Shown: in pieces, positions 1-7,256 of the stretch
How the letters are laid out: every line of letters starts with the position of its first letter
Position numbering within the stretch: position 1 is the first letter of the stretch
Assembly (NCBI GenBank): GCA_963731265.1
Contig: CAVSUE010000001.1
Location: 1,792,001 to 1,856,000 of the forward strand
DNA from: an uncultured Verrucomicrobiae bacterium
GTDB taxonomy: Bacteria > Chlamydiota > Chlamydiia > Chlamydiales > Rhabdochlamydiaceae
Direction: 5' to 3'
Length of the DNA stretch: 64,000 bases
The notes under the pieces: model-generated
Told to the model about the DNA's origin: nothing
Seen by the model: the letters and a program-made list of their open reading frames with translations, nothing else
Databases searched by the model: none
Position numbers and translations under genes: made by a program

Positions 1-1146
1 CTCGCCAATCCAACCGCTATATTGAAGAACATTGACGATCGTCGACATCAACCAGGCCAAAAAATAAGTTCCCTGCTCATAAAAATTCGGCCCTCTCTTC
101 TTCCATCGGCTAAGAACATACCCCAAAATCAAAACAAGACACAAATTCACCAGTGAACTGTCCGAAGCATTGAGCAGAAACTCGGCGGAAAAAACATTGG
201 AGACCAAAATAAAAATCGTGGTCAATCCCAGACCTAAAATGAGATATTCTTTGCGGCCGACAAGAGCTTTTGGCGCGATCACTTCCCAACCTACTGAAGC
301 CGAATAGACGTTGGCCACGTTGGCGCAAATCACAGATAAAAAAACAAAAACAATCAAAGAAATTCTAAGCATCTCATTGCCCGAAGCCAGAACGAGCGCT
401 TCCTTAATGCCAAAGTTCCCTTCAAGGACAGCGACAAAATAAAGACTGCATAACCCAAGCCCCAAGCTGAAAAGCTGAACGATCGTTAAAGCGCGAATCG
501 ACGTATACCAGGATTCGCTATGCCTAAAAAAAGTCGGAAGGTCCGAGGTGATTCCTAAACTCGTTCCCAAGACCAAAGATAAACCAGACAGAGAAAGTGC
601 AGTGATTCCAGAAGCTGGCATTTTAAAAGGCAAAGCAAAAATCACCGCGAAAAATGCCACCAATAAAATCGGAAAACAGATCGTCGTTAATCTCCTCAGC
701 ACAACGATCCCTTCCATGCAAAGAAAAGTGCTCACGATTCCCACAAAAACGCTCATTTGCGTAAACTGGTCAATCTCCGGATCTTCTTTGATCACGATCA
801 GATGCGTCAAGGCATTACTCGCAGCCGTTGTCTGAGCGATGAACCACGCCAACGTGGAAATCAAAAGAAGCGCTCCGATGAAATAACTTCCAAAATTCCC
901 TAAATAATCCCGCGAGATGTCCAAAGTACTTTGCCGATTTTTTTGGCTCATCGCCAAAATGCCTAACCGGATAAACCACAAAATCGCATTGCCCACGATG
1001 ATGGTCAATACCGCTCCCAAGAAACTATTCTGCTGCAAAAGCAACATGCTCGTTGCCAAAATGGGCAGGCTGGTCCATCCGCTCAATTGGATCGCAGACA
1101 GCTGCCAAGCCGTTTGGTGGGTATCGGGTAGTCCGTTAGTTTTCAT
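1..1146 (-). CDS. NCS1/purine-cytosine permease-like transporter (3' end runs off the window; absent from ORF track)
   Basis: Read manually: ATG at 1146 gives MKTNGLPDTHQTAWQLSAIQLSGW...GNAILWFI...DLPTFFRHS...NVYSASVGWE, open to position 1. Same motifs as ORFs 1136..2350 and 5307..6542. Start overlaps the upstream gene by 11 bp. Confidence 0.85.
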   Translation of the reverse strand, partial: MKTNGLPDTHQTAWQLSAIQLSGWTSLPILATSMLLLQQNSFLGAVLTIIVGNAILWFIRLGILAMSQKNRQSTLDISRDYLGNFGSYFIGALLLISTLAWFIAQTTAASNALTHLIVIKEDPEIDQFTQMSVFVGIVSTFLCMEGIVVLRRLTTICFPILLVAFFAVIFALPFKMPASGITALSLSGLSLVLGTSLGITSDLPTFFRHSESWYTSIRALTIVQLFSLGLGLCSLYFVAVLEGNFGIKEALVLASGNEMLRISLIVFVFLSVICANVANVYSASVGWEVIAPKALVGRKEYLILGLGLTTIFILVSNVFSAEFLLNASDSSLVNLCLVLILGYVLSRWKKRGPNFYEQGTYFLAWLMSTIVNVLQYSGWIGE

Positions 1147-2350
1147 GCCACTTTTTCCTCACAGCCCAAGCTGTTTCCTCCACAAAGATCACACACAGGA
1201 AAAACAACAGACTTGCATTAATGCCGACTAGCAATGCATCCACCCCCTGCAAAAAATGATTCACTTCATAAACGGTCGCAACCAGACAGCCGAACAACCA
1301 TGTCGCCAGACTTATCCCTTTTTCTAACGGCCTTGGCCTATGCTTGACGATGATTCGAATCAGATATGCCATCAACAAAACCACCCCAAGGCATGCGATG
1401 TAGGCATTCGTCAGGTCCATTAAGAATTGAACAGGTGTAGAAATTTGGATGAAAGTGTATACAAGGGTTCCAAATAAACCAATAATTGCAAACTCTTTTC
1501 CTCCTTCATATTGAGGGACAAAAGTTTTCCAGCAAGCTGAGGCGAGATAGATATTGAGCAAGTTACAAATTGTCAGAATCAAAACCACAAAAATGGTAAT
1601 CGGCAAAACTAACCCTTTGCCTGGAGTAGATAAAAATTGCATCCAAATCGTGGAAATTTCAAAAAAAGAGACAAGTAGAGAAAGCAGAGTGATGGCCAAA
1701 TAGGAATGTGCTTTCGAACGAGAGTGTCTAAAAAAGGTAGGAAAATTAATAACACCTGGGAGGAGGATCAAAACTGTCGTAAGAACCGCCGGAAATGAAA
1801 GCCCCCATGTTCCTTTTATAGAAATAGCAACATCAGGTTTAATTAGCCAATAGAGATGGTAGAAAAATAATAAGGGCAAGCAAGAAACAGCTATCCATTT
1901 AAGTAAACGGATTCCTCCAATAGAAAGCAATGCTGTTAAAAGCCCTAACGCAGCTCCAAACTTAACCCCTATTCCCTCTTGACGGCCTGATAGATCAAAT
2001 TGAAATAAGCCGTTCAGTTCCCTCATGGAAAAATTAATTTGAAATGCGTACCAATTAAGAAAAGCAACAATTAGCACGAGTGCCGCGAGCATTCCTCCAT
2101 ACTTCCCAATATAATTCTTAAAATTGTCGATCGCATTGGCTTGCCTGCGCTCGACCATGGAAATGATAGCAATGCCGATCAGCCATAAAATGAGGTTGCC
2201 CAATAGAATCGAACATATCGTCGTACCTGCCCCATATTGCTCAGCCAATTGCTTTCCTATAATAATCACCGATAGCCCTGGGCCCCCACTTTGAATGCTC
2301 GCCAACTGGAAACAATTTTGGTTATCGTAGCTTTGAAGCTGCTTGCTCAT
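1136..2350 (-). CDS. NCS1/purine-cytosine permease-like membrane transporter
   Basis: 404 aa, highly hydrophobic multi-TM protein; motifs GNLILWLI, NFPTFFRHSRS, NLLNIYLAS resemble CodB/NCS1 permeases. Confidence 0.75.
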   Translation of the reverse strand: MSKQLQSYDNQNCFQLASIQSGGPGLSVIIIGKQLAEQYGAGTTICSILLGNLILWLIGIAIISMVERRQANAIDNFKNYIGKYGGMLAALVLIVAFLNWYAFQINFSMRELNGLFQFDLSGRQEGIGVKFGAALGLLTALLSIGGIRLLKWIAVSCLPLLFFYHLYWLIKPDVAISIKGTWGLSFPAVLTTVLILLPGVINFPTFFRHSRSKAHSYLAITLLSLLVSFFEISTIWMQFLSTPGKGLVLPITIFVVLILTICNLLNIYLASACWKTFVPQYEGGKEFAIIGLFGTLVYTFIQISTPVQFLMDLTNAYIACLGVVLLMAYLIRIIVKHRPRPLEKGISLATWLFGCLVATVYEVNHFLQGVDALLVGINASLLFFLCVIFVEETAWAVRKKWHEN

Positions 2351-2499
2351 CCATGATCCTTATAACCGCGATAGTTTTCGTTATATAACAAATTTTTTTT
2401 CTGGCTACAGTTCAAAAAATCGAAGCCTCTTTCGAGCAAAAGCCTCAATCTTCTGGAGACCAAAGGGTTGAAATCTATTATCAAAATAATAAAAAATAC

Positions 2500-6542: not shown

Positions 6543-6545
6543 AAC

Positions 6546-7256
6546 TTATACGATCCTCTCGCCGCCGTCGACGTAGACGACTGAGCCGCTCGCGAATCCG
6601 CACTGGATCAGATACGCCACGGCTTGTGCGATGTCATCGGGATGCCCGATTCTTTTGGTAGGCAATCGAGCTGCAGCCTTTGCAAATTCTTTTGAGCGCT
6701 CTTCTTCGGGCAGTGAATCCCATACGGGAGTGGCGACAGTGCCAGGGGCGATCGCATTCACGCGAATGGGAGATAGCTCAAGAGCTAAGGCTCGTGTGAG
6801 TCCCTCTAGGGCGGCATTGATAGCGCTTCCGACAGAGAAATTCAGAAAAGGTTTTTGTCCTGCGACGCCGCAAAAAAAAGTGATGGACCCACCTTTTCGG
6901 ATATGGGGCGCGCTGTGTTTCGCTGCTAAATATTGTCCCCAGAACTTACTGTCGAAAAACTGCTTTGCTTCGGCCAGTGGAAGCTTTAGAAAAGGGCCCA
7001 TGATAAAATTGGCAGCGGAGGTGACTAAATGATCGAAGTCCCCTATGGAATCAAAGAAGCGGGATATGTCTTCCTCTTTGGTGACATCTAGCTCATGGCA
7101 TTCAGCATCTCCAATGAGTTTCCTTGCCTTTTCGAGCCTGTCTTTTGATCGACTTGCAATCACGATTTCATGCCCAAGCTTGGAAAGCAGTTGGGCTGTT
7201 GCTAAACCCATCCCGGAGCTACCGCCAATAACCACTGTTCTTAATCGCCGTGTCAT
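6546..7256 (-). CDS. short-chain dehydrogenase/reductase (atypical active site)
   Basis: GGSSGMG Rossmann motif, IRVNAIAPG, VYVDGG; canonical YxxxK replaced by GSAIN; 3 bp upstream of the permease, so probably operonic. Confidence 0.85.
   Translation of the reverse strand: MTRRLRTVVIGGSSGMGLATAQLLSKLGHEIVIASRSKDRLEKARKLIGDAECHELDVTKEEDISRFFDSIGDFDHLVTSAANFIMGPFLKLPLAEAKQFFDSKFWGQYLAAKHSAPHIRKGGSITFFCGVAGQKPFLNFSVGSAINAALEGLTRALALELSPIRVNAIAPGTVATPVWDSLPEEERSKEFAKAAARLPTKRIGHPDDIAQAVAYLIQCGFASGSVVYVDGGERIV

Follow-up and report, generated by a model that had tools for sequence, protein, structure and literature searches.

A conserved chlamydial gene module of NCS1-like permeases and predicted OTU/papain-like Cys-His enzymes that may make a small cyclic-amide signal

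Three NCS1-like permease genes and two genes for distantly related Cys-His proteins (core 1 and core 2) form a conserved module in an environmental chlamydia, and the cores are candidates for enzymes that make a new small chemical signal. The window, i.e. the whole stretch of DNA that was analysed, comprises 64,000 nt of contig CAVSUE010000001.1 (GCA_963731265.1; positions 1,792,001–1,856,000, forward strand). Because relatives of the cores in other host-dwelling bacteria adjoin transporters, ring-opening enzymes or signal receptors, we favour, at a probability of about 0.4, the reading that the cores are cytoplasmic acyl-cysteine enzymes making a small cyclic-amide signal that partner genes transport, sense or degrade. 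We know of no self-made small-molecule signal in chlamydiae, nor is one described in the abstracts listed for chlamydiae and quorum sensing, and the cores touch on the question of how these bacteria time their development and perceive the host. No description of a core–permease system was found in a literature search with sparse coverage of subscription papers.

All ORFs of the earlier note were verified at the coordinates used here. Permeases A (1–1146) and B (1136–2350) are encoded on the reverse strand and overlap by 11 bp (1136–1146), permease A being a 417 aa protein in the genome, with its gene extending 107 bp beyond the window edge. Divergent from permease B is a forward-strand unit encoding a small Gly-rich protein (2570–2758), core 1 (2844–4025, 393 aa) and core 2 (4035–5327, 430 aa). 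Permease C (5307–6542, reverse strand) converges on core 2 with a tail-to-tail overlap of 21 bp (5307–5327) and lies, as reported earlier, 3 bp behind a short-chain dehydrogenase/reductase (SDR) gene (6546–7256, reverse strand; 6542/6546). The consensus promoter proposed ahead of the forward unit, a candidate sigma-70-type site (TTGACA-18-TATAAT, 2500–2529, forward strand), was the sole perfect 12/12 match, but promoter-like sites as a whole were at chance level (16 in all versus 13.8 ± 3.4 in shuffles).

The listed TTG start of the Gly-rich ORF (2519) falls within this promoter; the most likely start is ATG 2570/2573, which is preceded by GGAG and gives a protein of ~61 aa, as in the homologs. 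These lie directly 5′ of 23 core genes in the permease-duplicated clade. The protein has the look of a two-helix membrane protein with a weak Gly-zipper match, below cut-off, and could be a pore or accessory subunit. A precursor-peptide role was considered and not supported, given this membrane look and the restriction to one clade, and it is further disfavoured because a PQ-loop protein takes the place of the Gly-rich protein in Gammaproteobacteria.

The SDR, previously called atypical and proposed to tailor the product, does lack YxxxK, but passed the NCBIfam cut-off for the equivalog PRK07041 (292 versus 257 bits). A core or permease was present at none of the 14 ortholog loci fetched, the single linked case being locus L145, and the GC content of the SDR gene (0.51) differs from that of the module (0.38–0.45). 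Its membership of the pathway was rejected on these grounds; the SDR is probably an incidental neighbour of the module, and may be co-transcribed with permease C.

The three permeases proved to be paralogs, as had been claimed, with 24–40 % identity and common QTAWQL/QNCFQL/QNFWQL, GNxILW and PTFFRHS motifs. A permease profile matched Mhp1 (E 4e-14) and CodB (E 8e-13) at full length (~390 positions). The cut-offs of the curated NCS1 models TIGR00800, CodB and CytX were missed (21.7 versus 353 bits, 19 versus 310 bits), and relatives also remained under the cut-off (66 versus 326 bits). Permease A (TIGR00800 E 7e-5, below cut-off; Mhp1/CodB profile match, tree and per-locus counts) belongs to a conserved NCS1-like type, found at most once per locus. 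Permeases B (CytX E 6.5e-4, below cut-off; profile and tree) and C (paralogy and tree) belong to a variable type, the members of which equalled the cores in number in 26 of the 32 loci with all three parts; roughly, there is one variable permease per core and one conserved permease per locus. The equivalents of Mhp1 W117, N318 and Q121 were kept in 103, 102 and 87 of 104 permeases, respectively, and align to W100, N266 and Q104 of permease B, with Glu replacing Q121 in permease C. In Mhp1 these residues hold the hydantoin ring, according to the available part of PMC4195764.

The cores belong to an unnamed family that numbers about 1,300 clusters. BLAST barely picks up the homology of core 1 to core 2 claimed in the earlier note (31 aa, E 6e-4), whereas a comparison of profiles bore it out (probability 96.4, E 1e-9, 325 columns); by this measure, the two are distant paralogs within an undescribed family. 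C62 of core 1 was present in all 131 aligned core sequences, which covered all five contexts, whilst 130 had D54 and 129 had H369, gaps accounting for the exceptions; the corresponding residues of core 2 are D76, C84 and H390. The predicted pockets differ, with H85 and Y341 in core 2 versus Q63 and H325 in core 1. H325 was lost in all four POT-linked cores, so that pocket and transporter type co-vary, in that clade only. No Pfam family, OTU included, matched the 115 members scanned, no NCBIfam family was matched by more than one of 72 members, and no PDB sequence matched below E 0.01; by these searches, the cores do not fall into a known, functionally unrelated family. PADLOC anti-phage defence models gave no family for the four of seven proteins scanned, and ESM Atlas matches to the cores were all <0.9 and included zinc-peptidase clusters, which were rejected as chance.

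Structural models of core 1 and core 2 (pLDDT 94.8 and 90.2) weakly but consistently point to an OTU/papain-like fold. The top six rows of the core 2 comparison (Z up to 5.2) were all OTU-family chains, as was every row with >100 aligned residues (136–146 residues, rmsd 4.1–4.4), among them the Wolbachia wMel OTU 6w9r (136 of 162 residues, rmsd 4.1, Z 5.2), and for core 1 such chains accounted for 15 of 50 rows (Z up to 4.6); for these matches (Z 4.6–5.7 overall) the tool cautions that Z <8 may reflect a common arrangement. Foldseek, a check suggested in the earlier note, gave no match at E ≤ 0.001 (E 0.31 and 0.79), and a wide search with core 1 mostly brought up GPCRs and other helical bundles, the OTU match ranking only 29th. 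Other papain-like small-molecule enzymes (phytochelatin synthase, arylamine N-acetyltransferase and NlpC/P60) were absent among the matches listed, although the cores may still resemble them. In sequence, the residue set is OTU-type, with invariant Cys and His and an Asp upstream of the Cys, and the C-x-x-R-A motif and late His resemble OTU motifs.

This fold raises the question of whether the cores act as deubiquitinase effectors of the OTU type that are secreted, the genes around them being an island that travels along. OTU deubiquitinases give the best fold matches, including the bacterial 6w9r and 8cmr, and the named hosts of the family (Chlamydiota, Legionellales and Amoebophilus) are host-associated groups. 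Some core homologs have long C-terminal extensions, and the Amoebophilus homolog is a solitary gene with an N-terminal extension; solitary and extended forms are common among effectors and speak against signal synthesis. However, core genes form tight operons, in many of which stop and start codons overlap, with genes for transporters, catabolic enzymes and kinases, OTU models and PDB sequences failed to match as described above, and the core 1 model is folded from about residue 8 and is without a disordered secretion leader. Given the weak OTU-like fold, the effector explanation survives at low odds and we consider it very unlikely.

The proposal of a small-molecule module fared better, as NCS1-like permeases are conserved beside these Cys/His enzymes without a described family. 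All 20 regions inspected around the best matches to the cores kept permease neighbours, and in Chlamydiota an NCS1-like permease lay within 3 kb of 81 of 105 core genes, whilst 14 had no partner in 3 kb (10 of these with room on both sides); the genomes are related, so locus counts are not independent. DUF917 was near 33 of the 105, mostly with a hydantoinase-like gene and usually in one operon, the order core > permease > DUF917 > hydantoinase-like being common. Other cores adjoin POT transporters, and some adjoin DUF917 with no transporter. NRPS/PKS genes beside loci L033, L034 and L042 were not general and were treated as incidental. Taken with the kinase loci described below, the DUF917–hydantoinase and POT contexts favour signalling or metabolite processing over a toxin.

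The processing of an imported compound is a possible, if rather doubtful, alternative to signal synthesis: the core would be a hydrolase or amidase that cleaves or cyclises a host-derived peptide-, nucleobase- or thiohydantoin-like compound, the product of which is catabolised by DUF917 and the hydantoinase-like protein, or tells the PAS kinase that the cell is inside a host. The common operon order agrees with this, as does the occurrence of transporters in every context. The DUF917 neighbours are S-Me-THD-like by Pfam, with a relation to thiohydantoin desulfurase that is far under cut-off (90 versus 440 bits), and the single-permease clade keeps a TTN-like motif, expected of an importer, at what is presumably the Mhp1 sodium site. 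Co-transcription of a synthase with a degrader also looks futile, so that a catabolic role fits these operons better, which counts against the signal-synthase reading. On the other hand, the permease–DUF917–hydantoinase cassette occurs core-free at 6 of 25 extra permease loci, and window-type loci, which like this genome as a whole have neither DUF917 nor hydantoinase, still keep and duplicate cores with matched permeases. Even if the cores are hydrolases, this large unnamed family would take the OTU fold into small-molecule chemistry, and would offer a first pointer to the substrate of DUF917–hydantoinase cassettes and to the ligand of the many orphan PAS kinases that come with LqsR-like regulators.

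In Gammaproteobacteria, a PAS histidine kinase was directly downstream of 29 of 35 cores, an LqsR-like regulator was within 3 kb of 10 and a PQ-loop-like ORF was upstream of 20; a core–kinase pair is also annotated on a Legionella antarctica plasmid. The regulator matches PDB 6sy9_A (E 2e-56), which we take to be LqsR. The cut-off of NF005526, presumably the CqsA/LqsA model, was passed in none of five genomes bearing the cassette, which suggests that the core occupies the place of a synthase, and the cores themselves matched no LqsA/CqsA-type family in Pfam or NCBIfam. Neither kinase, receptor nor such a regulator was found at the window locus. The literature search, within its coverage, returned nothing on LqsR-like regulators with PAS kinases or on Lbru_1694.

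Known OTU-like folds act on proteins, and the cores might instead target or bind the product of an adjacent gene (kinase, permease or small membrane protein), serving as a protease, deamidase or ligand-sensing subunit and releasing no diffusible product. A small membrane protein directly 5′ of the core in two contexts (Gly-rich, 23 cases; PQ-loop, 20) and the frequent 1 : 1 ratio of cores to variable permeases would suit such contacts. The partners, however, are unrelated folds (NCS1, POT, PAS kinase and DUF917), some cores do without a transporter, and a chlamydial-clade core sits within a PQ-loop/kinase cassette at locus L137 (SH-aLRT 96; AU p 0.043, a marginal result for a group named after an earlier tree). 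The last case is more easily explained by a link through a small molecule than by co-evolved contact between proteins, and overall we regard this explanation as unlikely.

Under the preferred signal-synthase reading, the core Cys would take up an activated amino-acid donor as an acyl-thioester, which would be closed or transferred to give a hydantoin- or diketopiperazine-like cyclic amide. Core 1 and core 2 would differ in their products, with permeases B and C each carrying one of these over the membrane and permease A being common to the two, as importer or shared subunit. In relatives, a product of this kind would be broken down by DUF917 together with the ATP-dependent hydantoinase-like protein, or else detected by the cytoplasmic PAS kinase with the LqsR-like regulator. 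More tentatively, and with some doubt on our part, OTU-fold Cys enzymes may be a new class of autoinducer synthase for amino-acid-derived cyclic amides, shared and swapped among host-dwelling bacteria (Chlamydiota, Legionellales-like Gammaproteobacteria and Amoebophilus); this would imply two-channel chemical signalling in an environmental chlamydia, both channels being served by an NCS1 transporter set with shared and specific members. Being soluble, encoded by a single gene and equipped with one clear candidate for the catalytic Cys, the predicted enzyme lends itself to direct testing.

Several known systems resemble parts of the module. OTU deubiquitinases (wMel OTU 6w9r, otubains and Simkania SnOTU 8cmr) have a Cys-helix and His-strand core such as is weakly predicted here, but the cores have ~250 additional residues, 7–10 % identity and no profile match to them, and their gene neighbours are metabolic or signalling. 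tRNA-dependent cyclodipeptide synthases and AgrB-type peptide cyclases are single enzymes that make cyclic amides via an acyl-enzyme intermediate; the mechanism proposed for the cores is alike, without a sequence or fold match. The Legionella Lqs cluster comprises the LqsA synthase, LqsS kinase and LqsR regulator (PMC4669118, available part), and relatives of the cores show the same enzyme–kinase–regulator order with a homologous regulator. Unlike LqsA/CqsA-type synthases, the core is predicted to be a Cys-His, OTU-like protein, the kinase is of a cytoplasmic PAS type with a PQ-loop transporter added, and the window locus has permeases in place of a kinase. DUF917/S-Me-THD and hydantoinase–oxoprolinase cassettes share their DUF917 and HyuA-like families with the NCS1-linked genes of relatives, but none described has a core enzyme, and this genome lacks both families; the only study found for PF06032 describes, in its available part, DUF917 enrichment beside cyclodipeptide oxidases without CDPS (bioRxiv 10.1101/2023.09.25.559410). 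The permeases resemble Mhp1 (hydantoin) and CodB (cytosine) in full-length profile and in their W117/Q121/N318 equivalents, but they do not keep that of W220, the duplicated clade has exchanged the Thr-Thr before N314 and, in contrast to Mhp1 and CodB, each set combines one conserved with one or two variable paralogs.

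All seven ORFs of the locus, their overlaps and the permease motifs described in the earlier note were found as stated. The window form of the locus comprises one type A permease (1..1146, minus strand), two type B/C permeases (1136..2350 and 5307..6542, minus strand) and two cores on the plus strand (core 1, 2844..4025, 393 aa; core 2, 4035..5327, 430 aa). Permease A is 417 aa at full length, 107 bp of its gene lying outside the window. The Gly-rich gene upstream of core 1 most likely starts at 2570/2573; a perfect promoter sequence at 2500-2529 was confirmed, and the total of promoter-like sites was in line with chance. 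The genome consists of two contigs (2.34 Mb in total), and because the named relatives of the proteins were chlamydial MAGs the source phylum was taken as Chlamydiota. Beyond the locus lie yidD (7338-7550), an RHS/YD-repeat protein of 1,695 aa (7618-12705) and, downstream of the latter, small low-GC ORFs resembling immunity genes; a second RHS gene, accompanied by an IS, is found ~4-10 kb to the left of the window.

Within the Chlamydiota, core 1 was matched in 72 of 400 genomes and permease B in 89 of 401, the window's own genome being counted in both cases. The proposed adjacency of cores and permeases held across genomes: each of the 20 regions surrounding the top core 1 matches contained permeases. 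Among 105 distinct chlamydial core ORFs in the fetched loci (at least 250 aa, shorter fragments excluded; loci picked from match lists, and records with ambiguous titles assigned to chlamydiae by default), 81 had a permease within 3 kb, 33 a DUF917 gene, 32 a hydantoinase-like gene and four a POT transporter; 14 had none of these partners. In the reverse direction, 25 further permease loci comprised 15 with a core, six with permease, DUF917 and hydantoinase but no core, and four with permeases only. The DUF917 and hydantoinase-like partners carried S-Me-THD domains and Hydantoinase_A above Pfam cut-offs, and scored far under the desulfurase and caprolactamase equivalog cut-offs. Many relatives co-transcribe the core with degradative genes, which favours a processing hydrolase, a possible but doubtful reading; neither DUF917 nor a matching hydantoinase-like gene was found in the window's own genome.

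Several single loci stood out. MFS, NRPS-like adenylation-carrier and ketosynthase-thioesterase genes adjoin the core-permease locus in L033, L034 and L042, and a 759-aa ORF (L147:5963-8242) joins permease and DUF917, either as a fusion or as an assembly artefact. A contig of 3.8 kb that bears the label Nanoarchaeia, and is probably mis-binned, has a window-like Gly-rich-core-core-permease locus (L096).

The SDR (6546..7256, minus strand) did not hold up as a pathway partner: neither core nor permease was present in the 14 loci fetched of 22 other ortholog loci. It is an ordinary member of PRK07041, present in 23 of 400 genomes, and its GC is unlike that of the module. Given a close ortholog placed after a hydantoinase-like gene (L145), the SDR may be linked to the core module now and then.

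The permease profile (32 sequences) matches Mhp1 and CodB along their length. Mhp1 W117, Q121 and N318 stack on and hydrogen-bond to the hydantoin ring (PMC4195764); their equivalents were present in 103, 87 and 102 of 104 permease sequences, respectively. In the permease tree a single-copy DUF917-linked clade lies apart from a derived clade, which is divided into conserved type A and variable type B/C. Type A never occurred twice in one locus (44 loci), and the number of B/C genes equalled that of cores in 26 of the 32 loci holding A, B/C and core. Type A is a candidate partner of B/C, or a plain importer.

Core 1 had 179 relatives and core 2 had 40 in the 90 % collection, and the core 1 profile matched 1304 clusters at 50 % identity (E ≤ 0.001). 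The two core profiles aligned over 325 columns (probability 96.4). No assignment was obtained in Pfam, NCBIfam, PADLOC, PDB (by sequence) or Atlas. In a diverse alignment of 72 sequences the sole invariant positions were D54, C62 and H369 (D76, C84 and H390 in core 2).

Variant forms were also seen. A third core paralog in the same genome, outside the window (G000:C1:1417493-1418615), is broken up: its two ORFs overlap but differ in frame, further stops follow and the His motif is absent; L087, from the same genus, has a core split at the matching position. Near-identical core-permease-DUF917-hydantoinase cassettes occur in genomes from different chlamydial families (L053, L054, L055 and L114), their cores split near residue 260, and the core of L125 is interrupted in that region too. 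A broken gene may have been transferred recently, the enzyme may consist of two chains, or recoding may occur. In P0161 and P0163 two core domains are fused in tandem.

Of the structural checks suggested earlier, prediction gave confident models (pLDDT 94.8 for core 1, 90.2 for core 2), but neither core had a significant Foldseek match. In a wide structural search with core 2, OTU-family proteases made up 18 of the 50 matches listed, including the top six (Z up to 5.2) and every one with more than 100 aligned residues; in a second look they took all of the top 10 ranks (Z up to 5.7). For core 1 the wide search gave helical bundles on top and OTU at rank 29, and the second look 15 OTU-family proteins among 50 listed (Z up to 4.6). 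This weak but consistent support suggests that the cores may have an OTU/papain-like core with large insertions. A protein-directed role is improbable and a deubiquitinase effector slightly more so, although solo and extended homologs may have diverged in such a direction. Ten relatives (P0243, P0250, P0256, P0259, P0266, P0267, P0272, P0277, P0281 and P0285) carry C-terminal extensions of 250-500 residues that had no match in Pfam. A solo Amoebophilus homolog (L110:5452-7167), very near core 1 in the tree and likely acquired from chlamydiae by transfer, has a lipoprotein-like N-terminal extension of 178 residues.

Core homologs were found in 19 of 400 Gammaproteobacteria genomes, in 10 of the 21 genomes from a single order, and also in Legionella brunensis; on a Legionella antarctica plasmid the homolog lies immediately upstream of an annotated PAS sensor kinase. 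The next gene was a kinase for 29 of 35 gammaproteobacterial cores; a regulator of 330-370 aa lay within 3 kb of 10 and DUF917 of three. A PQ-loop-like ORF was recognized by pattern upstream of 20 cores, one of them confirmed by Pfam. A Legionellales core (L137) was nested among chlamydial cores in the tree, yet lies within a PQ-loop/kinase cassette; this placement was marginal (AU p 0.043, 42 of 131 sequences used). Downstream of another core gene, a kinase (L199:4729-6525) has a PQ-loop-protein-like N-terminus fused to PAS-kinase domains. The sole PDB match of the regulator was 6sy9 (E 2e-56), which we take to be LqsR, and none of five kinase-cassette genomes reached the cut-off of NF005526, presumably the LqsA/CqsA model.

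A single enzyme family, its catalytic-type residues fixed, is combined with varying partners that all handle small molecules: transporters of rings or of peptides, enzymes that open rings, and PAS kinases. The cores would act by acyl-cysteine chemistry, turning an amino-acid-like donor into a cyclic amide. DUF917 has been linked to clusters that encode a cyclodipeptide oxidase but lack a synthase (bioRxiv 10.1101/2023.09.25.559410); this link, taken with the Mhp1-like binding site, suggests that the product resembles a hydantoin or a diketopiperazine. We tentatively favour signal synthases (probability about 0.4), given the synthase-like position of the core in the kinase cassette and its retention here without catabolic genes.

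The core-permease system is real and conserved, and apparently undescribed: no description was found in the literature searched, which mostly did not cover subscription papers. The Lqs cluster includes synthase, kinase and regulator genes (PMC4669118); the window system does not belong to Lqs/Cqs. By predicted fold the cores weakly resemble OTU deubiquitinases and are at most putative members of that group. By analogy, the system may work like a synthase-transporter-receptor or a transporter-enzyme-catabolism module.
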